A DNA stretch of 64,000 nt from Candidatus Hydrogenedens sp. GTDB taxonomy: Bacteria > Hydrogenedentota > Hydrogenedentia > Hydrogenedentales > Hydrogenedentaceae. Below the pieces are notes generated by a model. That model did not search any database. It was not told the DNA's origin and was given only the letters and a program-made list of their open reading frames with translations. The DNA is taken from contig JBMFRC010000003.1 of the NCBI GenBank assembly GCA_049968235.1, forward strand, positions 192,001-256,000, read 5' to 3'. Positions within the stretch are counted from its first letter, which is position 1. Each line of letters starts with the position of its first letter. Shown in pieces: positions 29,700 through 60,810 of this stretch. The position numbers were made by a program, and so were the translations under genes.

Positions 29700-30047
29700 G
29701 ATTTCTCTGTATTCTCTGTGGTTGATTATGTTTTTTTCCCACCACGGAGGACACGGAGGGTACGGAGAGGCACAGAGAGGCACAGAAAGGCACAGAGAGA
29801 GGAACCTATCATTTCTTGTTAATGACTGCATATAATTTGAAGTGGATGTATGGGGAATTAAGGTTAAAAAGGATCAATATGCATGGATAACCAAAAGATA
29901 GAAAAATTGACATAAAACAGCACATAAAATAGTAAAAGTAGATTTATAGACTTTTGTATTTTAATTTCTTATCAGGATTTTATCTCATAAAAACATATAT
30001 AAGTTATACCCTAACCTCTTACACTAATTGTTAAGAGGTCTCATATG
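29700..30047 (+). repeat. ~350-bp repeat module (right half of the element), present again inverted at 60420-60810
   Basis: By-eye alignment of 29700-30047 against the reverse complement of 60420-60810 gives long runs of identity. The 29.7k copy has about three extra GGCACAGAGA units. Confidence 0.6.
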
Positions 30048-30352
30048 TATTTTATTTCTTCACTCTGCCCTATTATTCAGTACATTGCATATATTGTATC
30101 TGGCTCATTTTTATTCCCTGTTAGTGAGACACTACCAATACTTTTCCATTACAAGCAGAATACCTCTTCGGTACTCCATTTTTCTTGTATGATTGTGGCA
30201 AAGAAGTTCTCTTTTTTGCCTGTGCTGATTGTTAGTTGGCGGTAATAGGGTGGCTATTTTTACTTTTCTTTATTAACTGTAATAAACTATCTTATTATCT
30301 GTGCTTCAATAGAGTAAACAATAACAATAACTTACAAGAAGGAAAGATAACA

Positions 30353-31768
30353 ATGAAAAAGAATGAATGGTCAAAAATGACACGAAGGGCATTTTTAGCC
30401 ACATCCACAACAGTAGTAACAGCGGGTGCTTTTGCACAGACCCCGTCCACCCAGAATACGGCACAGGTTGTTCCCCGTAAGATTTCTCCGAACGAGAAAT
30501 TGAATGTAGCTGCGATTGGTGCTGGTGGGAAAGGACTTTCTGATATTATGAGTTGCTTTAAGTTGGGACACAATGTTGTTGCTCTTTGCGATGTAGATTG
30601 GAAACGGGCTGAAGAGGCATTTTATCGTTTGCCGAAAGCGAAAAAGTATAAAGATTATCGTAATATGTTAGAAGAGATGAAGGAAATTGATGCGGTTACG
30701 ATTTCTACTCCCGACCATTCTCATGCCCCTGCTGCATATATGGCAATGAAGATGGGGAAACATGTATATGTTCAGAAGCCGTTAACGCATACGATTGCAG
30801 AGGCGAGATTGCTTACCCTCACGGCACGCGAGACAGGTGTCGCAACACAAATGGGGAATCAGGGGCATTGTGGTAATGGAGTGCGTCAATTGTGCGAAAT
30901 GATTTGGAGTGGTGCTATCGGTAATGTGAAAGAAGTTCATATATGGACACATCGTCCGGTATGGGATAATCAGGGAATGACAGAGCCATTACCGCCGGAA
31001 GTAACACCCGAAGATATGGACTGGGACCGCTGGATTAACTGTGCACCATGGCGTCCCTATAACCATAAATTGGCTCCGCATGATTGGCGAGCCTGGCAGG
31101 ATTTCGGTTCCGGTTCTCTGGGCGATATGGCTTGCCATATTATGGACCCGGCATACTGGGCGTTGAAATTGTATGAGGCACCGGAATTTTCTGTTGAAGT
31201 GGTCTTTCAGAAGGGACAAAATAGACAAACATTTCCGATTGCAACCACAGTAAAGTATTCCTTTGTGGCACGTGGCGATATGGGACCTGTTGATGTTTAT
31301 TGGTATGATGGACACTGGAAGGATGAAGCCACCGGTCAGGAAATCTATAATCGTCCCAAACGACCCGAAGGAGTGCCGGAGGATGAAGTATTGGGCGATG
31401 ATAATATGAATGGTTCCATGTTTATTGGTGATAAAGGCATTCTTACAGCAGGGGAATATGGTGGAGAACCGCGATTGGTTCCTTCTTCTTTGATGAAGGA
31501 TTATACCCTACCACCGCAAACGATTGAGCGTATCCCGATGGAAAGTCCATATTTTGACTGGCTTCGTGCTTGCAAGGAAGATAAGCCCGCCTGTTCGAAT
31601 TTTAATTACTCCGGTCCCTTCACAGAAATGGTGCAGTTTGGCAATGTCGTCGTCAAATCAGGTCAAAAGTTAATCTGGGACAATATTAACGGTGTTGTTA
31701 AAAATGTATCCGACCCGAAATCAATTATAAGTAAAGAATATCGTAAAGGCTGGGAACTTCCCTGCTAA
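30353..31768 (+). CDS. TAT-secreted Gfo/Idh/MocA family oxidoreductase
   Basis: TAT motif MTRRAFLATS. Rossmann GxGxxG (AAIGAGGKG) with the typical Gfo/Idh/MocA N-terminal NAD domain. The start was taken at the internal ATG (codon 40 of the tracked ORF). Confidence 0.75.
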   Translation: MKKNEWSKMTRRAFLATSTTVVTAGAFAQTPSTQNTAQVVPRKISPNEKLNVAAIGAGGKGLSDIMSCFKLGHNVVALCDVDWKRAEEAFYRLPKAKKYKDYRNMLEEMKEIDAVTISTPDHSHAPAAYMAMKMGKHVYVQKPLTHTIAEARLLTLTARETGVATQMGNQGHCGNGVRQLCEMIWSGAIGNVKEVHIWTHRPVWDNQGMTEPLPPEVTPEDMDWDRWINCAPWRPYNHKLAPHDWRAWQDFGSGSLGDMACHIMDPAYWALKLYEAPEFSVEVVFQKGQNRQTFPIATTVKYSFVARGDMGPVDVYWYDGHWKDEATGQEIYNRPKRPEGVPEDEVLGDDNMNGSMFIGDKGILTAGEYGGEPRLVPSSLMKDYTLPPQTIERIPMESPYFDWLRACKEDKPACSNFNYSGPFTEMVQFGNVVVKSGQKLIWDNINGVVKNVSDPKSIISKEYRKGWELPC

Positions 31769-31793
31769 CAGAAGATTTATTGATTATTTAACG

Positions 31794-31833
31794 ACAGGAC
31801 CCGATGTTGAACAGCATTGGGTCCTGTTTTGTG
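31794..31833 (+). terminator. Rho-independent terminator (9-bp GC-rich stem plus T-run) after the oxidoreductase gene
   Basis: acaggaccc-gatgttgaacagcatt-gggtcctgt followed by tttgtgtt. Confidence 0.6.
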
Positions 31834-31844
31834 TTCGGGGTAGA

Positions 31845-33050
31845 TTATTCATAGCGCAGGGCTTCAACGGGGTCAACACTTGCCGCTTTCAAAGCAGGAT
31901 ATACACCGGAGATAACACCGACAGCAGAACTGAAAAGGAAAGCAGTCATTACAGACCATAAGGATAGACCTATAGGTAAGTTGGGGTAAAGGGCACGGAT
32001 AATGGCGGAACCCATAAAACCGAGAAAGATACCGGTCATCCCACCGAGAACACTAAGGGTGATGGATTCAACGAGAAATTGCAAACCAATATCGGTACGG
32101 GTGGCTCCTACTGCCATACGAATACCCACTTCACGTGTGCGTTCCCGCACGGATACTAACATAATATTCATAATTCCAATGCCACCTACCAGTAGCGATA
32201 TGCATGCGATACCTACTAACATAAGTCGAAGCATACTGAAAATTCGTGAGAAAGCGGAAAGCATACTATCTTGATTTGTAATGGTAAAATCTTCTTCGTT
32301 ATCGTGAGCAGAACGGACGATTTTTCGTGCTGATTCTGTAGCACGGGGAATATCTTCCTGTGTGCGTGCACCTATAAGAATTTCCATGACTTCTTCGACA
32401 TTAAAAATGCGTTGTGCACTGGGTAGAGGGATAATAACAATATCTCCGAGGTCAATCCCCAATGCCATTCCGCGTTCTTCTAAGATGCCCACAACGGTAT
32501 GTTTTGAACCGTTGATTGAAATTTTTTCATACAAAGCACGGTGTGTTCCGAACAATTCTTTTTTTACAGTTGTTCCGATGATGCAGACACGGCTATTGCG
32601 TTCAATATCTTCTTCCGTGAGGAAACGACCTATTTGTGTGTATAATTGGCGAACTTTCTCAAAGTCCGGGGTTGTGCCGATAAGTAAAACATTCCGCTGA
32701 CGATTTTTATATCGGATATTGGCTAATCCTAATGTGTTGGAAGCCACACCGATGATACCGGGGACTTTCCGTTTTACCTGTCGGGCAATTTCATAAGTAA
32801 GTTTTTTGTGACTTCCCGCACTGATGGGAAACATACCTGTTGTTTCTTGTTTACCGGGGGTAATAATGATGACATTGCTACCCATAATGGCGAATTCCCG
32901 TTCTACATAGGCTTGTGCAGACTCTCCTAAGGCAATTAACAATATTACAGACATAACCCCAATGATTACCCCTAATGCGGTCAATGCGGCACGCATTTTG
33001 TTCTGATTCAGTGCAATGATAGCGGATCGTATAAGTTCCCAGAAAGACAT
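31845..33050 (-). CDS. ABC transporter permease, MacB/FtsX family
   Basis: N-terminal TM, a MacB-like periplasmic domain, then 3 C-terminal FtsX helices. Confidence 0.85.
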   Translation of the reverse strand: MSFWELIRSAIIALNQNKMRAALTALGVIIGVMSVILLIALGESAQAYVEREFAIMGSNVIIITPGKQETTGMFPISAGSHKKLTYEIARQVKRKVPGIIGVASNTLGLANIRYKNRQRNVLLIGTTPDFEKVRQLYTQIGRFLTEEDIERNSRVCIIGTTVKKELFGTHRALYEKISINGSKHTVVGILEERGMALGIDLGDIVIIPLPSAQRIFNVEEVMEILIGARTQEDIPRATESARKIVRSAHDNEEDFTITNQDSMLSAFSRIFSMLRLMLVGIACISLLVGGIGIMNIMLVSVRERTREVGIRMAVGATRTDIGLQFLVESITLSVLGGMTGIFLGFMGSAIIRALYPNLPIGLSLWSVMTAFLFSSAVGVISGVYPALKAASVDPVEALRYE

Positions 33051-33055
33051 TACGA

Positions 33056-34303
33056 TTACTCTCCAAGTGAGGGAACGATTTTGATTCTAACTCCGTCTGT
33101 CAATCCTTTAATTCCAACGGAAGTAATTATGGTATCGCCTTCTTTCAATCCTTCCACAATTTCACGTGTTTCCCAGTTCCCGATACCTAAAGTTACCGGT
33201 TTACGAACAGCACGGTCTCCTACTACCACATAAGCAAATTCATCGCGGATAAGGCTTTCACTTGGGACATAAAGGACATTATCTTTTTCAGATACGATTA
33301 CCGTTACATCCGCAGACATTCCTGCAAGGAAATTGCCCTGTTCCAGAAATCGAACCTTTACTGTAAAGGTTCGAGTAAATTCCTTTGTAATGGTAATTAC
33401 TGGGGATATTTCAAATATTTCACCCATAAAAACCTGTCCCGGGAAGGCGTCTAATTCAATCCTTGTCTTTTGGTTCAATGAGATTTGTCCTGCATTGGCT
33501 TCGTCAAAAGGTGCTTCAATGTATAGGTCAGAATTGTCAAGCAGATACATTAGAGGCACGCCGATAGCAATACCTTCTCCTTCATGCACATTGATGGTGG
33601 CAACAACCCCATCGAAGGGTGCTTTAATAATGGCTTTATCTCTAATGGCTCTGGCTGAATTTAAAGCAGATTCCGCCTGTATGATGGCGGTTTCTCCCGC
33701 TTTTACTTCTTGTTCACGAACTTGTAGTTCTTTTACACTCGTGAGGGCAGATTGGTATGCCTCTTTTGCCACCTTGTAAGCCAGTTCCACTTTTTCCTGT
33801 TCTCCTGGTGAGAGAATTCCCTGTTCACGAAGTTTTTTAGCACGTTCTAAATCCGATTCCGCTTGCTTTAATTGTGCTTGCGTTTGATTGATTTGTGATT
33901 CAGAAAGATTTTTAGCCACCTCATAACCGACGCGTGCTTGTTCCAGTCGTGTCTTTGCAACGAGCAGGTTTGCTTCAGAAAGGGCTACCTGTGCGTCAAG
34001 GTCTTCATGGCTTAATTCAATAAGAATTTCATCTCTGGCAACATGTTGTCCTTCCTTTACATGAACCTTAGAGATGATACCCATCATTCCGCTTGCAATC
34101 ATCGAGCGACGATGTGCCATAATTGTTCCGGAAGCGAAAGCGGAAACCGTTTGCTGGACCTTCCCCTTCTTTACAGTATCTACGGTAACCTGTATTGGCG
34201 ATGTGTAGAAAAAGAAATAATGAACTATACCTGCTACGATTAAAGCGAGAATGAATAAGAAGATTAATCGGATTAGGTAATTTTTGTAATTTACTTTTGC
34301 CAT
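33056..34303 (-). CDS. HlyD/MacA-type periplasmic adaptor (membrane fusion protein)
   Basis: N-terminal TM, biotinyl-lipoyl-like domain, long coiled coil and a beta-barrel domain. Its start overlaps the upstream ATPase gene. Confidence 0.8.
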   Translation of the reverse strand: MAKVNYKNYLIRLIFLFILALIVAGIVHYFFFYTSPIQVTVDTVKKGKVQQTVSAFASGTIMAHRRSMIASGMMGIISKVHVKEGQHVARDEILIELSHEDLDAQVALSEANLLVAKTRLEQARVGYEVAKNLSESQINQTQAQLKQAESDLERAKKLREQGILSPGEQEKVELAYKVAKEAYQSALTSVKELQVREQEVKAGETAIIQAESALNSARAIRDKAIIKAPFDGVVATINVHEGEGIAIGVPLMYLLDNSDLYIEAPFDEANAGQISLNQKTRIELDAFPGQVFMGEIFEISPVITITKEFTRTFTVKVRFLEQGNFLAGMSADVTVIVSEKDNVLYVPSESLIRDEFAYVVVGDRAVRKPVTLGIGNWETREIVEGLKEGDTIITSVGIKGLTDGVRIKIVPSLGE

Positions 34304-34989
34304 TCGTCTGATATTACCTTTCCATCTCTGAAGTGAATAATTCGTTGGGCACGAGACGCTACATCTTTTTCATGTGTAACCATGACAATAGTATGTCCTT
34401 TGCTATGTAATTCATCAAATAATTCAAGGATACTTTCCCCGCTTGCTGTGTCCAGATTTCCTGTGGGTTCATCTGCTAATATTGTGGAAGGATTGTTTAT
34501 CAGTGCCCGTGCAATAGCCACGCGTTGTCGCTGACCTCCGGAAAGTTCGTTGGGTCTGTGATACATACGGTCTCCAAGCCCAACGGCGATTAATGCCTCT
34601 TGAGCCCGTTGCCTTCGTTCTTTTCGTGGAACACGGTCATATATGAGAGGTAATTCCACATTTTCTAACGCAGTAGCACGACTTAATAGGTTAAAATTTT
34701 GAAAAACAAAACCTATCTCATGATTTCGCAGTTCTGCAAGTCGCATTTCAGAAAATTTATGAACCTCTTCACCTTTATACCAATAGGAGCCTGCGGTAGG
34801 TCTGCTAAGACATCCTAAAATATCAAGGAAAGTTGTTTTCCCTGAGCCGGAAGGACCCATAATTGCAACATAAGACCCCGCATCAATTGTCAAATCAACA
34901 CAGTTTAAGGCTATAACTCTATTGTCACCGACTTCATAAACCTTTTCAAGATTTTGCACATAAATTAATCGAGACAAACTTTCGCTCAC
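34291..34989 (-). CDS. ABC transporter ATP-binding protein (MacB/LolD type)
   Basis: Walker A GPSGSGKTT, signature LSGGQRQRVAIARAL, Walker B ILADEPTGNLD. Confidence 0.9.
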   Translation of the reverse strand: MSESLSRLIYVQNLEKVYEVGDNRVIALNCVDLTIDAGSYVAIMGPSGSGKTTFLDILGCLSRPTAGSYWYKGEEVHKFSEMRLAELRNHEIGFVFQNFNLLSRATALENVELPLIYDRVPRKERRQRAQEALIAVGLGDRMYHRPNELSGGQRQRVAIARALINNPSTILADEPTGNLDTASGESILELFDELHSKGHTIVMVTHEKDVASRAQRIIHFRDGKVISDEWQK

Positions 34990-35036
34990 AAAACCCTCCT
35001 ATTGAGGATTCGTAGTTTTTTCTTAAAATGTATATA

Positions 35037-36518
35037 TTATTTGTTTAAAAATCCTTTGGGTAACTCAGCAGGTGGCTCATATTTATAAGGTTCAATATCG
35101 GGAACTATGCGAACAGGTGTTGTAAAGGTGAAAGTGGTATTATCCGGTCCGGGAAAACTCATTTCAATAAGGTATGCTTTCCATCCTTTTTCCGGAGGAT
35201 TTACTTTCCCAACATAGACGCCTTTTTCTTGCTCCGTTAGTTCCTTTGCCTGATAGGCTTTGCCAAGAACATTTAAACGGAAGTCCCGTGCTTCTGGATT
35301 GGTGGCTTCCCATAAAGTAACTTTACCGGGTTTATCTTTTGTCCTGACTACAATAGTACAATCATCTGGAAATTCCCAGGAATATTGCGGAAGAGGTTTT
35401 TTCATAACAATAGCCTTGTAGAATGCAGATACACTGCTGACAACTTCTGGTTTAAGTCCATGACCTGTATTCGGCACATATCGGATATATGTAGGTGCAG
35501 GTAGGTCTGCAAGATAAAATTTCCATGAATCTGGCAGGAAAAATTCATCACCTGCGGAATTAATGATGAATTTGGGCATGGTTAGTCTATTAAGGTAACT
35601 ATACGGGTCAACAATCTTCAACATGGCTGAAAATTCAGGAGTGGTTAACCAGTCCATAATATTCATTTCTACATAATCATCTATTGCGGGAGCCCAACCT
35701 CCATATACCGCATAGTGATGTTTAAATGAGGGGACTAAATTTAGTAAATCAATAACCATGGGTACACATGCCACTACTCGTTTATCTACGATAGTAGTTG
35801 TCCATGTGGTCCAGCCGCGTTTGGAAGCACCTGCTACTACAAATTCATTTACTTTCACTTTTCCGCCTTCTTTACTTGCACAAAATTCCTGCACGGTATC
35901 CATAGCCCGAACGACCGCTTTTGTCATCGGCATACGTGTTAACCATTCCGCTTCTCCTGTTTTCAAATATTTATCCCAATTATATGCGATAATAGCGTCT
36001 TCGCTACGCTTTCTGTCGTTATCATTTGCAAAGACCAGAGGTTGATTCGGTATTTGCTTTATTTCCGCCACTACAGTTTGCACATCTTTGGCTATTGTTC
36101 GTAATAAGGGACTAGAAGATGTCGGCGGTTCATCACTATTTCCCCCACCGGAAATAATAAGTAATGCGGATGAATACTTCACCTTTTTAGGAACAACAAT
36201 TGTTAGCCAGTGTGTCCAGATGGGACGGTCAACTTCTTCAGGAGAACGCCAACTCTGGGAAGTGAGATGAATGTAATAAATAGTGAATTTGTCCGCTTGT
36301 TCTGTTTTTACAAGTTTATAACTGTAATTGGGGTCAGGTTTATAAACATAGGTATCCAGGGGGCCCGGATTTTTTGTTTCTCGGGCATTTGTAGAAGCAA
36401 TAACCTTTTGTGATTCTGATATAGGTGCTTTTGTCGCACAGCCAATAACAGAAGTAACAAGCAAGATAGACAGTAATATGGACAATAATTTCTTACTATT
36501 TAAAATCCGTTGTATCAT
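35037..36518 (-). CDS. PqaA-family (PhoPQ-activated pathogenicity-related protein, PF10142-like) lipoprotein; paralogue of the kinase ectodomain
   Basis: Lipobox VIGC. Conserved LTSQSWRSPEEVDRPIWTHWLTIVVP, GASKRGW (G-x-S-x-x-G nucleophile-elbow-like) and KAVVRAMDTVQE. It aligns along its length with residues ~490-900 of the 1579-4401 product. Confidence 0.6.
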   Translation of the reverse strand: MIQRILNSKKLLSILLSILLVTSVIGCATKAPISESQKVIASTNARETKNPGPLDTYVYKPDPNYSYKLVKTEQADKFTIYYIHLTSQSWRSPEEVDRPIWTHWLTIVVPKKVKYSSALLIISGGGNSDEPPTSSSPLLRTIAKDVQTVVAEIKQIPNQPLVFANDNDRKRSEDAIIAYNWDKYLKTGEAEWLTRMPMTKAVVRAMDTVQEFCASKEGGKVKVNEFVVAGASKRGWTTWTTTIVDKRVVACVPMVIDLLNLVPSFKHHYAVYGGWAPAIDDYVEMNIMDWLTTPEFSAMLKIVDPYSYLNRLTMPKFIINSAGDEFFLPDSWKFYLADLPAPTYIRYVPNTGHGLKPEVVSSVSAFYKAIVMKKPLPQYSWEFPDDCTIVVRTKDKPGKVTLWEATNPEARDFRLNVLGKAYQAKELTEQEKGVYVGKVNPPEKGWKAYLIEMSFPGPDNTTFTFTTPVRIVPDIEPYKYEPPAELPKGFLNK

Positions 36519-36617
36519 AGGAAAACCCTTTCTTTTGTTTAATGAAGAAAATAGACTGCGTAAAAATGAACTTTAAATTGACTAAAAGATAATACAATTT
36601 GTTTCAGTCTAAAAGCA

Positions 36618-36649
36618 ATATAGCCGATACAATTTTGTATCGGCTATAT
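36618..36649 (-). terminator. Perfect 13-bp palindrome hairpin downstream of the DUF1573 gene
   Basis: atatagccgatacaa-tt-ttgtatcggctatat. On the minus strand it is followed by tgcttttag. Confidence 0.4.
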
Positions 36650-36675
36650 GTATTATTAAAAGATTCTGTTCGTAA

Positions 36676-38046
36676 TTATTTTTGTGTTTGAGCCGGTTCT
36701 TGCTGAGGAGGTGTAGTTGGTTTGGGTAACTGGTCTTTGGGTGGAATTTTAATAGAGGTTGGGGGCAGTTTGTGTGGCATGTTGGGTCCCTGTTGCGGAT
36801 TCGGTTTTATCTCGCCACCCATAACATTCCGGGGTCTTGTGCTAAAATTCGGAATATCAATTACACGGAAAGGAATTTTAACTTCAGGTTTTGTTGTAGA
36901 TGTTGTCTTTACAATAATTTCTTTGTCTTTCAAAGAATTGTCCATAGGGATATTCTTAACAAGTAACAGATAGTCACCGGCACTGCGTTCTGTTACTTCG
37001 ACCTGAATATCGGGGGTGGGAGGAATAACTTCGACAATCTTTAATCCTTTCTCTTTACCTTCTTTGATACGTAAATATTGTTGCGTTTTGGCTTGAGGGT
37101 CTTCCTTATTTACTCGATAACTAATGACTTCTGGCGATACATCTATGGCACCGAGAAATCTACCATACATGGAAACATTGATATTCCTTAACGATGTTAT
37201 CGATGGGTCATTTACATCTTTACCGGGAATTGTAGCATCTGTCTGGATAGTGAAAGTTTTGGATAATGTAATGCCGGGTTCCACTTTCTCTATCTGTTTA
37301 ATTCTTATTTTGTAATATTTACCGGGTTCTACGGTTTCTACTTCTGCCTTGAATTGAGGCAAATTACTCATATCCACATTTGTAATGTTGAAAGTCAAAT
37401 CGGGGAGATTGGATTTCACTTCCACAATTTTTTCTTCTACAAAATCCTCTATAATGGAATAACCCAAATTGACGGTCCGTGGTTCTATAATAATGGGTGC
37501 CGAAGCAATACCTTTCAGGGTTAATGTTAATACAGGAGTTTCCGGGTCATTGGATTCAACGGTTATATTTTTTGTCTGGGGTCCCTGGCGATTTGCAAGA
37601 GTAAGGGTTGCTTTAATCTTTGTAGATTCTCCGGGTTGAAGTTCTTTCTTTTCTGGTTGGGCGACGGTGCACCCGCAGGTCGTTTTTACTTTGTCAATTA
37701 GCAGTAATCCATCACCTGCATTTTTAACGACGAATTCGTGTTCCACCTTTTCATCGTTCCTTTTTTCACCGAAATCAAATTCTGGTTCATCGCATACGAT
37801 TTTAGGTTTTCCCCCTGCTGTAGCGGAAGGGACCGCTTTTTGTTCTGCAGGTTGAGCAAGTGCCTTTTCTGCAGGAGGCGGTGTCGATGGTTTCTCTACT
37901 TTCTCTGTATCGGTTGCGGTTTTCCCTGCCTGCTGAGCAGGTGCCGGAGTAGATGGCTCTGACTTTTGTCCACCACAGGAATTGAGAATCACAATTAATG
38001 TTAGTACGAATACAAGACCCAGAAAAACTTTCATACCCTTACTCAT
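36676..38046 (-). CDS. DUF1573 domain protein with Pro/Ala-rich N- and C-terminal low-complexity regions
   Basis: Signal peptide. The conserved DUF1573 core ...FDFGEKRNDEKVEHEFVVKNAGDGLLLIDKVKTTCGCTVAQ... contains the TCGCT motif. Confidence 0.65.
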   Translation of the reverse strand: MSKGMKVFLGLVFVLTLIVILNSCGGQKSEPSTPAPAQQAGKTATDTEKVEKPSTPPPAEKALAQPAEQKAVPSATAGGKPKIVCDEPEFDFGEKRNDEKVEHEFVVKNAGDGLLLIDKVKTTCGCTVAQPEKKELQPGESTKIKATLTLANRQGPQTKNITVESNDPETPVLTLTLKGIASAPIIIEPRTVNLGYSIIEDFVEEKIVEVKSNLPDLTFNITNVDMSNLPQFKAEVETVEPGKYYKIRIKQIEKVEPGITLSKTFTIQTDATIPGKDVNDPSITSLRNINVSMYGRFLGAIDVSPEVISYRVNKEDPQAKTQQYLRIKEGKEKGLKIVEVIPPTPDIQVEVTERSAGDYLLLVKNIPMDNSLKDKEIIVKTTSTTKPEVKIPFRVIDIPNFSTRPRNVMGGEIKPNPQQGPNMPHKLPPTSIKIPPKDQLPKPTTPPQQEPAQTQK

Positions 38047-38228
38047 AAAACTTACCCTTTCTATTTTATTTTTTGAAATGTTTGGTTATCTATAAGAGTA
38101 AAATTTTCACAATAATAACAAAAAACTCATTTATACTAAAAATGAATATAGGACTTTATAAAAACGAAAATGGTATATAATAATGTTGACATAAAATAGA
38201 ATACTCTAAGAATTAAGGAAGATTATGA

Positions 38229-39512
38229 ATGAATATAGTAAATTTTTTAATGTGTTTGTTTTTTGTTTCTTTGGCAGGAAATGAGCCAGATAAAGTAGAT
38301 TTTATTTTAAGTAAACATACAACGATATCCCCTTCAGGTGCTTTTTGCTGGTTTCAAGATCCACGGGCTATTTATTTAGCAGGACAGCATCGACGAACTT
38401 ATGTTGGCTGGATTTCCTCTCAGGGTAAGTTGGAAATAGGCTATTATGACCATGACACAGATGAAGTTAATACAAAAACAATAAAAGAATTCTGGGATAT
38501 CGATGACCATAATGTCCTATCTTTGCTTGTATTACCTGATTTGCGTCTTATGATTTTCTATGCCCGGCATAATAAAGAAAATCTTTATGCACGCCAGAGC
38601 CTCAAACCCGAAGACATAACGACATGGGGAGATGAGATTGTGGTGGCGAAAATGGCGAAAGTAACATATAGTCATCCTGTATTTCTGCATAGCGAAAATT
38701 GTTTCTATGTTTTTTGGCGGGGAGAAACATGGAAACCTACTTTTGCTGTTTCTGAAGATAGTGTCCATTGGTCAGAACCTAAGGTCCTCTTTCAGGATAA
38801 AGGGAAGGAATCGGAGAATGTGCGTCCTTACTTGAAAGTGGTATCGGATGGTAAAAGAAGAATTGACTTTGCGTTTACAGATGGACATCCGAGAAATGAG
38901 CCGTTTAATTCGGTATATTATGCCCGTTATGAATCGGGAAAATTTTATCGTGCAGATGGGACAGTAATAGGTTCTATGGATACCCTTCCCATATTGCATT
39001 CTAATTGTGATAAGGTATATGACGCAAAAGTAACAGGTGTGCGGGCATGGGTCTGGGATATTGCCTTGACCACGGAAGGGAACCCTGTAATTGCTTATAC
39101 ACGATTACCGGAAGAAGACACACATTTTTATCATTATGCCTTATGGGACGGGAAGCAATGGATTGACCATGAAATTACCTTCGCTGGTCCCTGGTTTCCC
39201 GAAACACCCAAAGGTAAACAAGAGCCGGAACCTCATTATTCTGCGGGTATTTGTATCAACCATGCAAATACCGCAGAAGTTTATTTATCTCGACGGGTAA
39301 ATGCTACTTTTGAGATTGAACGATGGATAACTTCGGATAAGGGCAAATCATGGAACTATATCTCTATTACAAAGAATTCGACAGTTATTAATGTTCGTCC
39401 TATCGTCCCATGGGGGTATAATAAAGAGAAGGGGCATGTCATCTGGATGCGTGGGCATTATACCCATTACACTCAGTTTCAGACATCTGTTCAATGCTGG
39501 ATTGAACAATAA
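38229..39512 (+). CDS. BNR/Asp-box repeat protein, a putative secreted glycoside hydrolase (BNR_4-like)
   Basis: Asp-box motifs VSEDSVHW and TSDKGKSW. Signal peptide. Beta-propeller-like repeat pattern. Confidence 0.45.
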   Translation: MNIVNFLMCLFFVSLAGNEPDKVDFILSKHTTISPSGAFCWFQDPRAIYLAGQHRRTYVGWISSQGKLEIGYYDHDTDEVNTKTIKEFWDIDDHNVLSLLVLPDLRLMIFYARHNKENLYARQSLKPEDITTWGDEIVVAKMAKVTYSHPVFLHSENCFYVFWRGETWKPTFAVSEDSVHWSEPKVLFQDKGKESENVRPYLKVVSDGKRRIDFAFTDGHPRNEPFNSVYYARYESGKFYRADGTVIGSMDTLPILHSNCDKVYDAKVTGVRAWVWDIALTTEGNPVIAYTRLPEEDTHFYHYALWDGKQWIDHEITFAGPWFPETPKGKQEPEPHYSAGICINHANTAEVYLSRRVNATFEIERWITSDKGKSWNYISITKNSTVINVRPIVPWGYNKEKGHVIWMRGHYTHYTQFQTSVQCWIEQ

Positions 39513-39599
39513 ATTGTAAGTTTAAAATGTCGAGATAGTATTGATATACTCTTTATTTTTACGTGAAAAATAATGGACTACTAATCGGAAGATGGATAC

Positions 39600-41012
39600 A
39601 TGATTGCTTGTGGGATAGATTACGGGACAACTAACACCAGTGTTGCGATTGCAAAAGAGAATGGGCAGATTCAGGTTATAGAACTGGACGAGGAAAATGT
39701 TCCCTCGACCTCACTACCTTCTCTTGTTTATATCGGGTCTGATGGCTCTATTTTTACGGGGCGAAAAGCAGCCAATGTGTTTATTCAGAACAATGTTGGA
39801 CGAGAAGTTATCATGCAATCGGAAGAAACGGGGCTGGAAATATCATCTATTAGCAGGGCAGAGCCGGATAAAAGCGAATTTTATAATCCGAATTTAACAG
39901 ACCCAGATATTCTGGAAAAAATATCTATAAAGACGCTTGTAGATGTGAACATGCCTGGACGATTGTTTCAATCCCTTAAAACAAAGTTAAAATATGTGGA
40001 CTTCAAAGGAACCGATGTTTTCGGAAAGCATTACCAGATAGAGGAATTGGTCTCCCTTATTTTGAAACGATGTAAAGAAAAAGCGGAGCAATATGTTTCT
40101 GATACGATTGATATTGCGGTAATAGGTAGACCCGTCCTTTTCTCTCATAGCGAATTTGAGGACCAGATAGCAGAACGAAGATTGCGAAATGCGGGAATGA
40201 TTGCTGGATTTAAGGATGTAATTTTTTTCTATGAGCCCGTATCCGCTTCAATTGAATATATAAGCACAACATCCACGGAAGACCAGTTGGTAATGGTTGT
40301 GGATATTGGTGGAGGAACCTGTGATATTTGTATTATGAAATTTGAAAAGGCAGAGACGATAGAGGAGAAACTCAAACGAAGTGCGGTGCTATCTATTTCC
40401 GGAGATACTGTCGCCGGGGATATGATTGATAAAGAGATTATTCGCAAACGATTGTTCCATTATTTCGGTAGTACGGCAAGATATGGTCAGAATCATCTTC
40501 CCATGCCTAAAAACATCTTAAATGTTGTATTGGATTGGCAAAATTTGTATCGACTAAATACAGAAGAAACCATTAACTGGTTGATAGCGGTAGAAACTTT
40601 TAGTGACCAGCCGGAAGCCATAAGGGCTTTACGATTATTAATCCAGAAGAACTGTGGCTATCCTCTGGCTTTAGCCGTTGAAAAGGCAAAGAAAGAATTA
40701 AGTTTTCAAGAACAGGCAACAGTTCATTTCCAATTTGAAGGGTTGGACATAGAGGAAACAATTAATCGGGATGAATTCAGCAAAATTATCGAGGATATTT
40801 TAGAGCAGATTCATTCTTTAATTGTGGAAGCGGAACAGAAAGCAGGAGTGAAACCTGGCGATATTAACCTGGTTCTAACTACCGGTGGCACCTGTCTTAT
40901 CCCGGCAATACAAAAGATGCTACAAGAACGATATGGTTCATATCGAATTATTTCACGCGATACATTTACCAGTGTTGCCCGTGGTTTAGCGGTGGTCAGC
41001 CGTTTTCTATAA
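39600..41012 (+). CDS. Hsp70-family actin-like ATPase lacking a substrate-binding domain (YegD-like)
   Basis: GIDYGTTNTSVA, VIGRPV.F, AGF.DV.F.YEPVSAS, VVDIGGGTCD and VLTTGG motifs. The 470-aa length matches YegD-type proteins. Confidence 0.65.
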   Translation: MIACGIDYGTTNTSVAIAKENGQIQVIELDEENVPSTSLPSLVYIGSDGSIFTGRKAANVFIQNNVGREVIMQSEETGLEISSISRAEPDKSEFYNPNLTDPDILEKISIKTLVDVNMPGRLFQSLKTKLKYVDFKGTDVFGKHYQIEELVSLILKRCKEKAEQYVSDTIDIAVIGRPVLFSHSEFEDQIAERRLRNAGMIAGFKDVIFFYEPVSASIEYISTTSTEDQLVMVVDIGGGTCDICIMKFEKAETIEEKLKRSAVLSISGDTVAGDMIDKEIIRKRLFHYFGSTARYGQNHLPMPKNILNVVLDWQNLYRLNTEETINWLIAVETFSDQPEAIRALRLLIQKNCGYPLALAVEKAKKELSFQEQATVHFQFEGLDIEETINRDEFSKIIEDILEQIHSLIVEAEQKAGVKPGDINLVLTTGGTCLIPAIQKMLQERYGSYRIISRDTFTSVARGLAVVSRFL

Positions 41013-51810: not shown

Positions 51811-53640
51811 CTAAAATGCTTCTGCAAATGCATCTGATGGTTCTGGCGGTTCTTCTTCTACTTTGGGTACCTCACGGGTTTTAATGAAAGGACCTGTTAC
51901 CATGTCTTTGTATCCCATACCGGGACCCACCATTGGGAAAACGAGAGCTTTTTTATCAACCACAACCTCAAGAAAAGCGGGACCGTTATCGAATTTAATG
52001 AACTCCTCAAGTGTTTTATGAAGTTCTTCACGATGTGTAACACGCTTTGAGAACTTAAACCCATCCGCTTCCGCAGATTTGACAAAATCCTTTTTATGAA
52101 GGGATTTATCCGTGCCGGAAAATCGTCCTTCAAAGTAGAGTGTTTGCCATTGAACGACCATACCATCACCGTGATTGTTCAACAACAATATTTTAACGGG
52201 TATATTGTAATTCGTGCATGTTTCCATTTCACCAAAGTTCATTCGCAGACTTCCATCTCCATCAATATCAATTACAATTTTATTAGGTTTTGCCAGTTTA
52301 GCACCTATTGCCGAAGGTAGCCCAAATCCCATCGTTCCCATACTACCTGAGGTAATATAGGTTCGTGGATGTTTGATATGGAGATACTGTGCGGCGAATA
52401 TCTGATGTTGACCGACGCCTGTGGTGAAGATGGCTTCTCCTTTTACAATATCATTTAACGCTTCTATGACTTCTGCGGGCTGTATTTTTTGAGCGTTACG
52501 GTCGTAGTTTAATGGGAATTCTTTTTTCAATTGTTGAACATGTTTAAGCCATGCATCATGCTTTAAGGTTATATTTTTCCCATATTGCATGAGCGATTTC
52601 AATGCCTTGCCCGCATCGCAGACATGCGACCAGACCACAGGTTTGACTTTACCTATTTCCGCTGCATCAATATCGATATGTAAAACTTTTGCGTTCGGAG
52701 CAAACTCACTGGCTAATCCTGCTACACGGTCATCAAACCGTGTTCCCACAGCAATAAGCAGGTCACAATCTAAAACGGCATAATTCGCATAGGCTGTTCC
52801 ATGCATACCTAACATGTGCAGACAAAGGGGGTCATGTGTATTCATTGCTCCGATACCCATCACTGTGGTTACAACTGGGATACGGAACATTTTCACGAAT
52901 TCTTGTAATATGTGTGAAGCATTACTGGATATAATTCCGCCGCCAACATAAAGCAGAGGTCGTTTCGATGCTTTCAAAAGGGCAAAAAATTCTTTTGCCT
53001 CATCGGGAGTAATCTCGTTCTCGTTAATTTTTTGCATACGACTTTGATACCCATGAAGAGGGAGTAAACCTTTCCCTTTAAACACACATTCGTAATTCTG
53101 AACATCTTTTGGAACATCGATAACTACGGGACCGGGTCTGCCCGTTCGTGCAATGTAAAAGGCTGTTCTAACAATCTCCTCTAATTGTTCTGGCTCTTCC
53201 ACTAAAAATACATGTTTGGCGCAGGAGGACATTAAATTAAATACAGGTGCTTCTTGAAAGGCGTCTGTGCCCACAGCGGAGCGAGCCACCTGACCACTAA
53301 TCATAACCAGTGGTATAGAATCTGCCATCGCATCTCGTATTGGCGTAGTTGCATTGGTAGCACCGGGACCTGAAGTAACTAATAACACACCAACCTCTCC
53401 CGATGCGCGGGCATAACCGGATGCCATAAAACCGGCTCCTTGTTCATTTGCCGGTACAATCAAATTTATGGGATGTCCTTTATGTTCACGATTCCAGCGA
53501 AAAATGGCATCATAAGTTGGTAATATCGCACCCCCACTATAACTGAAAATAACCTTTACCCCTTCATCAGCAAGCACCTGTAAAATTATCTCTGCCCCTT
53601 TCATTTTCGTACCTGCCAATTCATGCTTTTTTGTAACCAT
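51811..53640 (-). CDS. ilvB: Acetolactate synthase large subunit-like thiamine diphosphate enzyme, with an acidic Pro-rich C-terminal tail
   Basis: 609 aa with TPP enzyme N, central and C domains (GDGSLRMNFGE...NN TPP-binding motif). No adjacent small-subunit gene. Confidence 0.8.
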   Translation of the reverse strand: MVTKKHELAGTKMKGAEIILQVLADEGVKVIFSYSGGAILPTYDAIFRWNREHKGHPINLIVPANEQGAGFMASGYARASGEVGVLLVTSGPGATNATTPIRDAMADSIPLVMISGQVARSAVGTDAFQEAPVFNLMSSCAKHVFLVEEPEQLEEIVRTAFYIARTGRPGPVVIDVPKDVQNYECVFKGKGLLPLHGYQSRMQKINENEITPDEAKEFFALLKASKRPLLYVGGGIISSNASHILQEFVKMFRIPVVTTVMGIGAMNTHDPLCLHMLGMHGTAYANYAVLDCDLLIAVGTRFDDRVAGLASEFAPNAKVLHIDIDAAEIGKVKPVVWSHVCDAGKALKSLMQYGKNITLKHDAWLKHVQQLKKEFPLNYDRNAQKIQPAEVIEALNDIVKGEAIFTTGVGQHQIFAAQYLHIKHPRTYITSGSMGTMGFGLPSAIGAKLAKPNKIVIDIDGDGSLRMNFGEMETCTNYNIPVKILLLNNHGDGMVVQWQTLYFEGRFSGTDKSLHKKDFVKSAEADGFKFSKRVTHREELHKTLEEFIKFDNGPAFLEVVVDKKALVFPMVGPGMGYKDMVTGPFIKTREVPKVEEEPPEPSDAFAEAF

Positions 53641-53729
53641 TGTGAAACTCCTTCTGTATAGGGTTGATATTTATAACAATTGAAAGTTATTTTTTATTTG
53701 AAACAATAGATAGATAATTTTAAAGTTAA

Positions 53730-53760
53730 GGCGCCGCAGAACAGGAATGTCTGCAGCGCC
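53730..53760 (-). terminator. Hairpin downstream of rpsA
   Basis: ggcgccgcag-aacaggaatgt-ctgcagcgcc with one mismatch. On the minus strand it is followed by ttaactttaaaatt. Confidence 0.35.
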
Positions 53761-53794
53761 GAAATTTTCAATCTCCGCACTTTTCTGTGGGAAT

Positions 53795-55663
53795 TTATTC
53801 AGCAGGCGGAGGTTCTTCCGCTGGCGCCGCAGGTTCCGGCGCCTCACCTACACCTACCTCTGGGTTCTCCTTTGTATGAATTAATTCTTCCGCTACTTCT
53901 TCAATAGATTTTCCTTGTTGAAGAAGTTCTGTCGGCAAAACATCTTTTAACATAGAACCGACATCCACAGGTTCACCTGCGGTATGTGTTTGCATAATTT
54001 CACCTTCAAGGTCTTTCTGATATTCGCGAATGCTCAGTCCGACTTTCCGTTCCACAGGGCTTATGCTAATAATTTTCGCCATAGCCCTCTGTCCAATATG
54101 AAGGAGATCTTCTGGACGCTGGACTTTCTCTAAGGACATTTCGCTTAGATGAATAAGTCCTTCGATTCCATTGTCCAACTTGGCAAAAGCACCGAAGCTA
54201 ACCAATTTTGTTATCTCTACTTCGACATGTTTACCGATGGGCATTTCTTCGACCAGTTCCTGCCATGGGTCGGGTTCTAATTGTTTCAAACCGACACTGA
54301 TTTTTTCCATTTCGGGGTCAATACTTAGTATCTTAACTTCCAATTCCTGGTCTTTGGTTAATACTTCTGCCGGATTGGTAATTTTCTTTGTCCATGAAAT
54401 ATCGCCTACATGCAGAAGTCCATCAATACCTTCTTCAATCTCAATAAATGCACCATAATCCATTAAAGCACGAACATGACCTTTCACCACAGACCCTTCC
54501 GGATATTTTTCCGCCATTAGTTTCCATGGATTGGGTTGTGTTTGTTTCAATCCTAAGGATATTTTTTGTTCTTCGGGGTCTACATGAAGCACCATAACAT
54601 GGACTTCATCGCCAATATTCAATATTTCAGATGGATGCCTGACTCTGCGTGTCCAACTCATTTCACTAATATGTATCATTCCTTCAAGTCCATCGTCCAT
54701 CTGAATGAATGCACCATAATCTGCAAGGCTTATCACGGTACCTGTAACAATAGAACCTACAGGATATTTCTCCTGGGCTGTTAACCACGGATTAGGCGTC
54801 TTCTGTTTCAAACCGAGACTTACCCGATGTGTATCAGGGTCATAGGTAAGTACCACCACATCAATCTTTTGCCCAATCTTTAACATCTGATGTGGATTTT
54901 TCGGTCTTCCCCATGTCATATCGGAAACATGGAGTAAACCATCTAAACCACCTAAATCAATAAAGGCACCGAAATCGGTGATGTTTTTCACTTCGCCCTG
55001 AACAATAGCACCTACCTTAATAGTTTCTAACAATTGTTTACGCTCTTCTTCTCTACGTTCTTCTAAAAGTTTCCGATGACTTACCACCACATTACGCCGC
55101 TTCGGATTAAGGCTCAAAATGCGTAATTCTAACCGCTTTCCAACAAACTCGTCAAGGTCAGCAATGGGTCTTGTGCTAACCTGACTTCCCGGTATAAAAG
55201 CATCAACACCAATATCCACTTTTAGACCGCCTTTGACCTTTCGAATAACGGTTCCCTCAATCACACCCTCTTCTTCAAATACTTTCTGGACATATTCCCA
55301 GTTCTTGATACGGTCTGCCTTCGTTTTGGATAACACAGGCATTCCTTCTTCGTTTTCCGGAACCTCAATGTAAAAGTCGTATGTGGCTCCCTCTTTCAAT
55401 TCGGAACGGTCGGGAAAATCCGTTATTCTGACAACACCTTCACTTTTATAACCAATGTCTACCAGAACACGGTCGTCCAGTATTGCAACTACTTGTCCTT
55501 TTATTACCTCACCTTCCTGAAAATGTAACATTCCCTCCTGGAGAAATTGGTCCACATCGGGTGCTGTCAAAAAAGAATTTAACTCTTCTTTTAATGACTG
55601 TGACAACGCCTGTGTTGCCATTTCATCCACTTTTGCATTAAGTTCTGAATACTTATAACCCAT
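53795..55663 (-). CDS. rpsA: 30S ribosomal protein S1 (six S1 domains) with a Pro/Ala/Glu-rich C-terminal tail
   Basis: Repeated S1 domains (G.V.G.V..I.DFGAF..L....GL.H.SE.S). Confidence 0.9.
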   Translation of the reverse strand: MGYKYSELNAKVDEMATQALSQSLKEELNSFLTAPDVDQFLQEGMLHFQEGEVIKGQVVAILDDRVLVDIGYKSEGVVRITDFPDRSELKEGATYDFYIEVPENEEGMPVLSKTKADRIKNWEYVQKVFEEEGVIEGTVIRKVKGGLKVDIGVDAFIPGSQVSTRPIADLDEFVGKRLELRILSLNPKRRNVVVSHRKLLEERREEERKQLLETIKVGAIVQGEVKNITDFGAFIDLGGLDGLLHVSDMTWGRPKNPHQMLKIGQKIDVVVLTYDPDTHRVSLGLKQKTPNPWLTAQEKYPVGSIVTGTVISLADYGAFIQMDDGLEGMIHISEMSWTRRVRHPSEILNIGDEVHVMVLHVDPEEQKISLGLKQTQPNPWKLMAEKYPEGSVVKGHVRALMDYGAFIEIEEGIDGLLHVGDISWTKKITNPAEVLTKDQELEVKILSIDPEMEKISVGLKQLEPDPWQELVEEMPIGKHVEVEITKLVSFGAFAKLDNGIEGLIHLSEMSLEKVQRPEDLLHIGQRAMAKIISISPVERKVGLSIREYQKDLEGEIMQTHTAGEPVDVGSMLKDVLPTELLQQGKSIEEVAEELIHTKENPEVGVGEAPEPAAPAEEPPPAE

Positions 55664-57617: not shown

Positions 57618-57842
57618 GTAGCCGTATCTTTTTTGTTTTATTATATCATTCCATCAAATTTCATTTCTAACAAAATAAGAAAATGCCTTTATAATCCATT
57701 ATATTATAACGATTAAAAACAATCTCTTATTTAATTTAATGTATTAAGGTTGTAAATTAGTTTCATAATTTGTATAATAGAAAGTCTCTCTATATTTTTT
57801 TACAATTTGTGCGGATAATTATTACAGTTTAACGGAAGGTTT

Positions 57843-58502: not shown

Positions 58503-58554
58503 TTAAAATATACATCTATTGTACATAAATGCTTAAAACCAGAGGGGTCTGAGC

Positions 58555-59991
58555 ATGAAAGATTATAACCAGTATATAAGTCCATTTGTTGAGCGATTTG
58601 CCACAAAAGAAATGATTGCTCTCTGGAGTCCACAAAAAAAATTTTCCACATGGAGAAGGTGCTGGCTTGCTCTGGCAGAAGCAGAAAAAGAGTTGGGGCT
58701 TGAAATTACAGATGAACAAATTGAAGAGTTGAAGAATCACCTTGATGATATTGACTTTGAACAGGCTCGGAAATATGAAGAGAAAACAAGGCATGATGTG
58801 ATGGCACACATCCTTACCTATGGAGATGTGGCACCTAAGGCAAAACCCATTATTCATTTAGGGGCTACCAGTTGCTTCGTTACGGATAATACAGACCTTA
58901 TTTTATGTCGTGAAGCCCTTGTTCTCATTAGAAACAAAATTGTAGCAGTATTGAAAAGATTAAGAGATTTTGCCATTACATATAAAGACATGCCCGCTTT
59001 AGGTTTTACCCATTTTCAGCCGGCACAATTAGTAACTGTCGGTAAACGTGCATGTCTCTGGGCTCAGGACCTTGTCCTTGATTTCCAGCAAATAGAACAT
59101 TTCCTTTCCACAATTAAATGCAGAGGAGTGAAAGGGGCAACAGGAACACAGGCATCTTTCCTGGTTCTGTTCAATGGAGACCATGATAAGGTGAAACAAT
59201 TAGACCAGCGTGTGGCAGAAAAATTAGGTTTTGTAGAAACAATCCCTGTTACAGGGCAGACTTACACTCGAAAAATAGATACACAAATCCTCCAAATCTT
59301 AGCAGGTATTGGTGAATCTGTCCATAAATTTGGAACGGACCTTAGGCTGCTTCAAAACATGAAAGAAATGGAAGAACCCTTTGAAAAATCGCAGGTGGGT
59401 AGTTCTGCCATGCCCTATAAACGTAATCCCATGCGTGCAGAACGAGCATGTTCCTTAGCACGCTTTGTAATGGGCATCCCGATATATAGTGAATTTACAA
59501 CGGCTGTCCAATGGATGGAACGCACCTTAGATGATTCTGCTATTCGCCGAATTATCATACCTGAATCTTTTATGGCAACAGACGGCATACTTAATCTGTA
59601 TTTGAACATTATGGAAAATCCTGTTGTTTACCCAAAGGTAATTGAAAAACATGTCCGCGAAGAATTACCCTTTATGGCAACAGAAACACTTCTAATGGCA
59701 GGTGTAAAAAAAGGTGGAGACCGTCAAAAACTCCATGAAATTATTCGTAAACATGCACAATCTGCCGGTGAAAGAGTTAAAATGGAAGGAAAAGAGAATA
59801 ACTTGTTGCAAGAACTTGCCCGGGACCCCGAGTTCCCGTTAAACGAGGAGGAAATCAACGCATGTCTTGATGAAAAAGACTTTGTTGGAAGAGCACCGCA
59901 ACAAGTAGCAGAATTCATAAATGAGGTGATAGAACCAATTTTACAAAAGTATTCCTCCGCGATTGAAATTTCTTCTTCTATTTCCGTTTAA
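58555..59991 (+). CDS. purB: Adenylosuccinate lyase
   Basis: 478 aa, fumarate-lyase superfamily with a PurB-specific N-terminus (YISPFVERFATKEMIALWSPQKKF) and an adenylosuccinate lyase C-terminal domain. Confidence 0.9.
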   Translation: MKDYNQYISPFVERFATKEMIALWSPQKKFSTWRRCWLALAEAEKELGLEITDEQIEELKNHLDDIDFEQARKYEEKTRHDVMAHILTYGDVAPKAKPIIHLGATSCFVTDNTDLILCREALVLIRNKIVAVLKRLRDFAITYKDMPALGFTHFQPAQLVTVGKRACLWAQDLVLDFQQIEHFLSTIKCRGVKGATGTQASFLVLFNGDHDKVKQLDQRVAEKLGFVETIPVTGQTYTRKIDTQILQILAGIGESVHKFGTDLRLLQNMKEMEEPFEKSQVGSSAMPYKRNPMRAERACSLARFVMGIPIYSEFTTAVQWMERTLDDSAIRRIIIPESFMATDGILNLYLNIMENPVVYPKVIEKHVREELPFMATETLLMAGVKKGGDRQKLHEIIRKHAQSAGERVKMEGKENNLLQELARDPEFPLNEEEINACLDEKDFVGRAPQQVAEFINEVIEPILQKYSSAIEISSSISV

Positions 59992-60419
59992 AAAGGCATT
60001 TAATTATCTATTTCCACATCCTTTTTCTACTCAATTTATGAGGTCTATAAATACTTTTCCACAACTTATTCACATACTATTCCAACAGAATATCCTCAAA
60101 AGATTTCAAATGCTATTTTATTATTTATCAATGACTTATACTTGATTTTAGAATATTATTGACAAAATTTCGTGTTTTATTTCTTGACAATTCACCAGTT
60201 TATTCACATCATTAAAAATACCTGTTTTTCGATATTTTCAATCCGATAAACCAAGAACAGAAAAAGTTAAAAATGAGTGTATAAAGTAGGAGAAAAGCTT
60301 AGAACAACCAGGCAAATACGACAGGTTTTTTGTAAATTATTGATAGCATATATAAACAATTTTTATATGCTTTTATCAATTTTCTGTTTCCTCCTGTGTA
60401 AAAAACTCACTTGTTATTT

Positions 60420-60810
60420 ATCTGTGACCTTTGAACAAGTGGTGTAAGAGGTAATAAGGTAATAGTATAAATTATACAGGAGACCTCTGAACAATTCATG
60501 TAAGAAATTATGGTATAAACTACATATGTTTTTATGAGATAAAATCCCGATGAGAAATTAAAATACAAGAGCCTATATCTCTACATTTACCTATTTTATT
60601 TGTTATTTTCTGTCAGTTCTTCTATTTTCTTATTACCTATGCATACCTCCCCCCTTACTTCCTTAATTCCCATACATCCGATTCAAATTATATGCTGTTA
60701 TTAACAAGAAATGATAGGCTCCTCTCTCTGTGTCTGTCCGTGTCCTCCGTGGTGGGAAAAATGTATTTCGCCACAGAGAACACAGAGACACACGGAGAAA
60801 AGGGAGAAGA
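60420..60810 (-). repeat. Inverted ~350-390-bp copy of the 29700-30047 repeat module, with an extra ~30-bp tandem duplication at the TIR-like end
   Basis: The reverse complement of 60480-60810 aligns with 29700-30047. Motifs gagacctctgaacaattcatgtaag and gtgacctttgaacaagtggtgtaagagg were read directly. Confidence 0.55.

Follow-up and report, generated by a model that had tools for sequence, protein, structure and literature searches.

An inverted repeat pair in Candidatus Hydrogenedens: very probably old insertions of an IS5-family deletion derivative

Introduction

When two copies of a repeat face each other across some 30 kb of mostly housekeeping genes, are they the arms of a segment that can be inverted, or have they come to lie there for other reasons? 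The question is raised by a 64,000-nt stretch of Candidatus Hydrogenedens sp. (GCA_049968235.1, contig JBMFRC010000003.1, positions 192,001-256,000 of the forward strand), which was analysed as a whole and is called the window here. Its regions 29703-30042 (+) and 60480-60793 (-) show inverted similarity at about 80% identity (blastn, E 5e-70); they belong to two elements, referred to as copies A and B. A first-pass annotation had considered the pair a substrate for recombination-mediated inversion of the 30.4-kb segment in between. The gene content that it gave for this segment was found as described and includes a MacAB-like exporter, a PqaA paralogue, two tRNAs, rpsA, ilvB, an ECF sigma pair and purO-purB. 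For comparison, three assemblies of the species are considered, namely the window's own and the metagenome-assembled genomes (MAGs) GCA_049971155.1 and GCA_049969095.1, which encode proteins identical to those of the window.

The repeat very probably represents the 3' part of a derivative that arose from an IS5-family insertion sequence (IS) by internal deletion, is non-autonomous and has spread in a Candidatus Hydrogenedens species. That A and B face each other is most likely incidental.

The repeat pair and the structure of copy A

The inverted repeat pair is real. With region 29330-30060 as query against the window, blastn gives a match to 60747-60467 (81.2% identity, 282 bp, E 5e-70) and a second one to 60788-60737 (83%, 54 bp), which corresponds to the hairpin part of the repeat. 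In a global alignment, A and B are 80.4% identical over 326 aligned columns, with 45 gap columns and about 29 additional tandem-repeat bases in A. The similarity is far beyond chance and is not of low complexity; every matching block quoted in the first-pass annotation is visible in the alignments.

As had been proposed, an IS-like element with GAGACCTCT ends is present here, and the repeat in copy A makes up its right half. The whole of copy A (29349-30042, +, 694 bp) is inserted between a membrane-protein gene and a gene for a Gfo/Idh/MocA oxidoreductase. Judging from its matching terminal repeats, it is a complete non-autonomous internal-deletion derivative of the IS5 family, similar to the small transposable elements with inverted repeats known as MITEs. 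Both terminal inverted repeats (GAGACCTCTGAATAAGT...) are present and match each other. The left one (GAGACCTCTGAATAAGTCAT) is read from the sequence at 29349-29368 (+), and the right one (...ACTAATTGTTAAGAGGTCTC) was placed at 30023-30042 (+) by blastn and alignment. The right end is the complement of the left repeat (...TTAAGAGGTCTC). Direct reading shows ATAT on either side of the element (29345-29348 and 30043-30046, +).

Between these ends, copy A retains the two extremities of a transposase gene. An open reading frame (ORF) of 77 aa (29465-29698, +) represents parent codons 1-76 and is 59% identical (E 4e-28) to P0004, the full-length transposase described below. The C-terminal remnant (29801-29863, +) represents parent residues 316-336 (tblastn with P0004, 81%, 21 aa, E 6e-6), and its DNA is 76% identical to L013:1109-1209 on the contig that encodes P0004. 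About 720 bp of the parent gene, codons 77 to about 315, are absent. In their place stands a hairpin sub-module with a stem of 16-22 pairs and a U-rich loop, located at the deletion junction (29701-29761, +; nhmmer and RNA folding), together with tandem repeats that extend the 3' arm of the hairpin (29743-29799, +; Tandem Repeats Finder). The latter comprise a 9-nt unit (CACGGAGGA, 2.8 copies) and a 10-nt unit (GAGAGGCACA, 3.5 copies). After the coding remnant, the rightmost 180 bp or so are AT-rich and non-coding and close with the right terminal repeat. The repeat module is hence made up of the hairpin insert, of the 20 or so codons with which an IS5-family transposase gene closes, and of the right non-coding end with its terminal repeat. 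As for the ORFs 29514-29831 (-) and 60692-60892 (+), the peptide that they were said to share is real, and the ORFs are fortuitous as annotated; the peptide is the antisense of the transposase C-terminal remnant. Scans for promoter and terminator consensus motifs around A and B gave results at or below the expectation from shuffled sequences, and no outward promoter or terminator role is proposed.

The parent element

The 77-aa ORF by itself has no match in Pfam, and a word-indexed protein search with it matched only three short Hydrogenedens ORFs. An exhaustive profile search with those ORFs led to the first 76 residues of P0004, a protein of 343 aa (E 5.7e-29). P0004 contains the Pfam domains DUF772 (PF05598, 1.5e-22) and DDE_Tnp_1 (PF01609, 1.1e-26) and scores 252 bits against the NCBIfam model NF033581, 'IS5 family transposase', for which the cut-off is 140. 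Annotated IS5-family transposases on plasmids share about 35% identity with it along more than 90% of its length. According to tblastn, its complete footprint in the window consists of residues 1-76 (29465-29692), 316-336 (29801-29863) and 316-334 (60722-60666); residues 77-315, including the catalytic core, have no counterpart there. The final residues of P0004 (...GAYHFLLMAAYNLKRMYGE...) match, in diverged form, the best-conserved block of the repeat (81% in A, 79% in B).

The ends of copy A also have their equivalents in full-length elements. The P0004 contig (L013) begins precisely with a left end, ATGAGATCTCTGAATAAGT. A complete IS of 1363 bp lies on contig L024 (1827 down to 465); its ends read GAGATCTCTGAATAAGT and GAGACCTCTGAACAAGA, and ATAT flanks it on both sides. 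This parent-type IS has 17-bp terminal inverted repeats (GAGAYCTCTGAAYAAGT) and a single gene for a 343-aa DDE transposase. A further insertion, on L025, provides a right end (...GGTCTC, followed by ATAT). The left end of A agrees with the full-length IS at 18 of 19 bases for L013 and at 20 of 21 for L024; the right ends align, and between the repeat module and the 3' non-coding end of the full-length IS the identity is 71-77%. When metagenomes were scanned with a 33-nt right-end pattern, no match was obtained. The conserved block coding for the transposase C-terminus found two contigs in such a scan, one of them with a complete IS.

The following origin is proposed. An IS of the L024 type, with both ends, one transposase gene and ATAT flanks, would have lost codons 77 to about 315, for which the hairpin and the 9/10-nt tandem repeats would have been substituted. 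The resulting 694-bp element is unable to encode a transposase. With both ends retained, it could in principle be mobilised in trans by a full-length copy. Copy A is such a complete derivative, and copy B is an immobile relic at a place where the gene order departs from that of related species. Most likely, both are old, diverged insertions of a dispersed repeat rather than two arms between which DNA inverts.

Further copies of the derivative

Several copies of the element have been found. In GCA_049971155.1, at least four loci are present: A (contig L003), B (L002) and one each on L005 and L006. The copy at L005:2724-3508 is complete (785 bp), lies between AhpC and methylase genes and is 71% identical to A. 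Its ends and ATAT flanks are the same as those of copy A, at an unrelated locus. The L006 copy is interrupted by the contig end. The hairpin lies at the same junction in A, B, L005 and L006; therefore, the copies descend from one deletion derivative that later multiplied.

These loci bear out the claim that the family is multi-copy. The fragment at the start of the window on which that claim had been built is real too. It was detected at 57-108 by blastn (87%, 54 bp) and at 53-110 by nhmmer, and it is referred to as copy C (53-110, +), a solo hairpin sub-module in an intergenic position with no other element parts nearby. Since it consists of the hairpin sub-module only and not of IS-derived sequence, it says little about the copy number of the 350-bp module.

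The N-terminal remnant has a dN/dS of 0.52 between MITE copies and of 0.16-0.18 between a MITE copy and the full-length IS. This pattern, from a small sample, fits relaxed constraint on the remnant. Moreover, contigs break inside the copies, as expected of a dispersed repeat: one of GCA_049969095.1 within copy A (end of L004, start of L007) and one of GCA_049971155.1 within the L006 copy. The element accounts for such breaks in Hydrogenedens MAGs. The 'hypothetical proteins' annotated at these places (77, 73, 47 and 49 aa) represent either remnants of the transposase or ORFs that read through the repeat. In all three assemblies of the species, A and B occupy identical sites, and no presence/absence polymorphism was seen.

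Copy B and the adjoining fragment

Alignments indicate that copy B (60480-60858, -) is a 5'-truncated copy. Of the parts of the element, it has kept the hairpin and the C-terminal remnant together with the 3' non-coding end and the right terminal repeat; the left terminal repeat and the N-terminal remnant are both absent. The C-terminal remnant (60722-60666, -) corresponds to P0004 residues 316-334 (tblastn, 79%), and ORF 60663-60830 (-) is 65% identical to P0004 residues 308-333. The hairpin sub-module is located at 60732-60793 (-; nhmmer and RNA folding), and about 65 bp upstream of it are common to L006 and absent from A. A DUF374 gene has its stop (60906) about 48 bp away from the truncated outer end.

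Two details of the first-pass description had to be corrected. The second copy had been taken to begin at 60420 and to end at 60810; B proper extends from its right terminal repeat at 60480 to about 60858, and 60424-60478 is a separate right-end fragment. B was also said to abut the 3' end of purB. Its inner end was found about 430-490 bp beyond the purB stop (59991), within the purB-DUF374 intergenic region.

The separate fragment, called B2 (60424-60478, -, about 55 bp), is an isolated right end that abuts the right terminal repeat of B. It can be aligned to the right ends of A, B and L005, of which that of L005 is the most similar (blastn, 89%, 36 bp, L005:3466-3501). The tandem position of B2 and the right end of B suggests repeated insertion or abortive events at one site. 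Because its left end is lost and a second, isolated right-end fragment lies alongside, B is a relic that can no longer move, and its site has undergone more than one insertion or rearrangement.

Points that weigh against a simple dispersed derivative

Several observations weigh against this explanation or limit it. No full-length IS of the family was found in the same species, which is weak evidence given that the MAGs are fragmentary. The nearest full-length copy comes from JGI metagenome contigs, and its DNA is only about 67-77% identical. For both reasons, current mobility is unproven. ATAT was seen at both ends of A, L005 and L024 and at the right end of L025. It may represent a 4-bp target duplication; since no empty target site was recovered, it could instead belong to the element ends. 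IS homology does not account for the hairpin/decamer insert, which is also present by itself at 53-110. Consensus assemblies may hide a minority sub-population with the inverted order. Finally, both junctions are synteny breakpoints with respect to related species, so an older IS-linked rearrangement is plausible, and copies A and B may have taken part in some rearrangement.

Gene order around the repeats in related species

On the A side, a relative with a 93%-identical oxidoreductase (L014/L015) has an FHA-GAF-HD gene in front of it and is colinear with the window downstream, to 42.4 kb. In an 80% relative (L016-L018), both neighbours of the oxidoreductase gene differ from those in the window. 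Homology on this side resumes only at the start codon of the oxidoreductase gene. On the purB side, homology to related species stops near 60211. Relatives with 92%-identical purB (L019-L022) are colinear from ilvB through purB, after which come a Zn-ribbon gene and a gene for a 1797-aa protein with a proprotein-convertase domain; in an 85% relative (L023), GH38 follows purB. Beyond B, four species with DUF374 proteins of 66-85% identity (L008-L011) have conserved the upstream operon, for which the short contig L010 shows the adjacent gene only. Downstream of their DUF374 genes, no gene of the window was matched, purB included. DNA homology to Ca. H. terephthalaticus stops at 60884, about 25 bp from the truncated end of B (60858).

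Related species thus show neither the present gene order nor the one expected after inversion between A and B, and the breakpoints are not of the kind that such an inversion predicts. The idea that the present order arose by a simple inversion between A and B was rejected, as the predicted neighbours are not seen in related species. IS copies may plausibly have been involved in making both junctions, with partner copies elsewhere.

Hydrogenedens species at 80-93% protein identity have kept their gene order only in blocks of about 5-15 kb (L008-L023 against 25-64 kb of the window). For instance, ilvB-rpsA are found on opposite sides of purB in L019 and L023. From these comparisons, gene order in the genus appears to be highly shuffled and rearrangement frequent.

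The DNA downstream of purB has a further particularity. DnaA-box-like motifs (TTWTNCACA) are clustered at 60013-60208 and 60395-60403, with four of the 13 exact motifs of the entire 64 kb lying in about 400 bp and a one-mismatch site at about 60013. Together with a TTGACAA block, they are about 72% conserved at the same position after purB in L019, L021 and L023. An oriC is unlikely, since the genes on either side are convergent and the skew turns from positive to negative there. The cluster may be the regulatory region of the gene that follows purB in relatives, left by rearrangement.

A protein-level similarity was also noted. A 766-aa protein with PASTA and InlB-B-repeat domains is encoded near A (25763-28063, +), and 95 aa of it are 56% identical to the C-terminal end of the 1797-aa proprotein-convertase-domain protein (L019:9708-9983, -), whose gene lies near purB in related species. 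The match may reflect a C-terminal domain shared by secreted proteins. Three 30-nt direct repeats (25964, 26408 and 26678) are the WxFDHWEG motifs in the repeat domains of the 766-aa protein.

Alternative explanations

The unexplained insert and the broken synteny could be combined in one alternative. The hairpin and the 9/10-nt module would then be an independent element, either a structured RNA specific to one strand or a small mobile palindrome, that invaded an IS5-family element, produced the deletion derivative and survives alone at 53-110; A and B would be scars of IS-mediated rearrangements that set the 30-kb housekeeping block in its present context in this Hydrogenedens lineage. Such a course of events is unlikely. 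The hairpin at one and the same junction in A, B, L005 and L006 goes back to a single derivative. Contigs L026 and L027, which carry the copy C locus, contain no more element-like sequence upstream of the window start.

Next, A and B might serve as arms for RecA-dependent recombination, with the 30.4-kb segment inverting recurrently or being polymorphic in orientation in the population. IS copies are well-known inversion substrates. The copies here are inverted, about 340 bp long and clearly homologous, and their junctions are synteny breakpoints with respect to other Hydrogenedens species. Nevertheless, this explanation is distinctly unlikely. The arms have diverged by 20%, and the longest exact runs shared by A and B in the global alignment are 24, 23 and 19 bp. 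RecA-dependent exchange is described as dropping log-linearly with divergence, close to the interspecies barrier beyond about 15% (PMC4824099; 10.1101/2020.05.13.090589), a value that the divergence of A and B exceeds.

Nor is there any sign of a second orientation. The first-pass annotation had pointed to assemblies of related strains as a place where both might be found. Only one was seen in three of three assemblies of the species, at junctions spanned by contigs. L003 spans junction A and carries the membrane-protein gene, the element, the oxidoreductase gene and MacB; L001 and L002 span junction B with the DUF374 gene, the relic and purB. All have the orientation of the window, and as they are 99.8-99.9% identical to it, they represent separate assemblies. 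In related species, the neighbours differ from those that an A-by-B inversion predicts. A discontinuity of the GC skew at the repeats had been suggested as well: in 2-kb windows, the skew changes with gene orientation, and neither 29.7 nor 60.8 kb is marked by a step, 64 kb being a weak test. Neither the scanned proteins, which are encoded beside the repeats and across part of the segment, nor the matching contigs' domain tables revealed a recombinase domain. These tables alone covered the genes at 31845-41012 and 51811-55663, and the flanking genes at 1-25 kb were mostly outside the scan. Taken together, the view of the pair as a meaningful substrate for inversion of the 30.4-kb segment is not supported.

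It is highly improbable that the hairpin/decamer module is the conserved core, either as an independent REP-like palindrome or as a structured RNA of the sense strand, with the IS merely as its carrier. The module does stand alone at 53-110 without surrounding IS sequence, and the hairpin is retained in all five copies. Its stem has 15-24 pairs and its loop is U-rich; the 3' arm continues into the array of CACRGAGRGG units, two of which, inverted, form the 5' arm. In four of the five copies, the fold is more stable for the sense than for the antisense strand: -25.1 against -17.1 kcal/mol in A (z -3.6 for the sense strand), -31.3 against -25.7 in B (z -5.9, likewise sense), -22.4 against -9.4 in C and -20.0 against -17.6 in a fourth copy. 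Moreover, the wobble pairs are biased in polarity, with 13 U(5')-G(3') and three of the opposite kind.

Set against this, the asymmetry may stem from the pyrimidine-rich 5' arm and the purine-rich 3' arm, and the L005 hairpin has no strand asymmetry. RNAalifold found no pair changed on both sides across the hairpin copies. In L005, two double-changed pairs were noted by eye in an ungapped alignment, which is weak evidence. Only three hairpins occur in 64 kb, and none was seen outside element copies in about 250 kb of related loci. A pattern with fixed spacing retrieved nothing, as the loop lengths differ, and the count of exactly three hairpins in the window comes from a regular expression and nhmmer. 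The orientation of the hairpins relative to neighbouring genes is inconsistent, and a scan of viral contigs for the hairpin gave no match. At the gathering threshold, Rfam recognised only two tRNAs and a fluoride riboswitch in the window and no hairpin family. At E<=1, the only models matched by the B hairpin were those of microRNA precursors from animals and plants (17-26 bits, with thresholds at 66-100), which is generic hairpin noise, and region A matched nothing. The fluoride riboswitch (RF01734) is located at 16986-17046 (+), upstream of ORF 17091-18284, and scores 57 bits against a gathering threshold of 34.

That the 30-kb block between the inverted IS-derived copies is, or was, a composite transposon moved as a unit is extremely unlikely: it has inverted IS copies on both sides, its outer junctions (the 28160-29320 gene on the A side, the DUF374 gene on the B side) differ from those of relatives and its inner order is kept near both ends (from the oxidoreductase gene to 41063-42433 and from ilvB to purB), but the absence of an outer, left terminal repeat from B, where family homology ends at about 60858, led to its rejection, the intact block-facing ends are both right ends with their tips toward the block and so cannot define a transposon, neither A nor B encodes a transposase, the cargo is housekeeping (rpsA, ilvB, purB and two tRNAs), and the species most closely related show different neighbours beside the two halves of the block instead of an empty site.

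Significance and comparison with known systems

The explanation of the repeat as part of a dispersed IS5-family deletion derivative has consequences mainly for annotation. What is called in Hydrogenedens MAGs at these sites as "hypothetical proteins" of 77 and 49 aa is debris of a transposon. The IS and the derivative represent an undescribed IS5-family lineage in a poorly studied candidate phylum with a seemingly highly shuffled gene order. Both are ordinary in kind, and the module is not of a novel type. No new mechanism is revealed, and there are no grounds to expect phase-variable inversion of housekeeping genes.

Documented IS-bounded inversions involve near-identical, usually full-length copies. 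The arrangement in the window is similar in that two inverted copies of the same IS family bracket a segment and that both junctions are breaks in gene order. It differs in its arms, which are 340 bp long and 80% identical with at most 24 exact bases, and in the single orientation.

IS5 of E. coli itself generates a 4-bp flank repeat, and its target is YTAR. The ATAT on both flanks of the parent IS on L024 may be a 4-bp repeat of this kind, with a sequence other than YTAR. This IS has in common with the family one DDE transposase that contains DUF772 and DDE_Tnp_1 and scores above the NCBIfam cut-off. Differences are that it belongs to an unnamed lineage from uncultured Hydrogenedens-type bacteria and that the copies in the window are partial and without transposase. 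Terminal repeats of the GAGACCT type were reported for the IS5-family elements ISNme1 and ISPg1 and their MITEs (PMC4596501). The 17-bp terminal repeats of the parent IS begin with GAGA(C/T)CT, as those of ISNme1 and the ISPg elements do (PMC4596501).

The closest likeness is to the IS5-type MITEs, such as BrickBuilt and MITE700 of Porphyromonas gingivalis and the Neisseria ATR (PMC4596501). These are likewise non-autonomous, AT-rich, intergenic and multi-copy, with IS5-type ends, and many of their copies are partial with one end missing, as is the case here. With its 694 bp, copy A is at the large end of the MITE range. In contrast to BrickBuilt, which has no transposase remnants, codons 1-76 and about 316-336 survive in the Hydrogenedens element, and its internal insert is a hairpin with only three to six units of 9-10 nt. 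As for this internal array of short tandem repeats, the minisatellite of BrickBuilt provides a precedent (PMC4596501).

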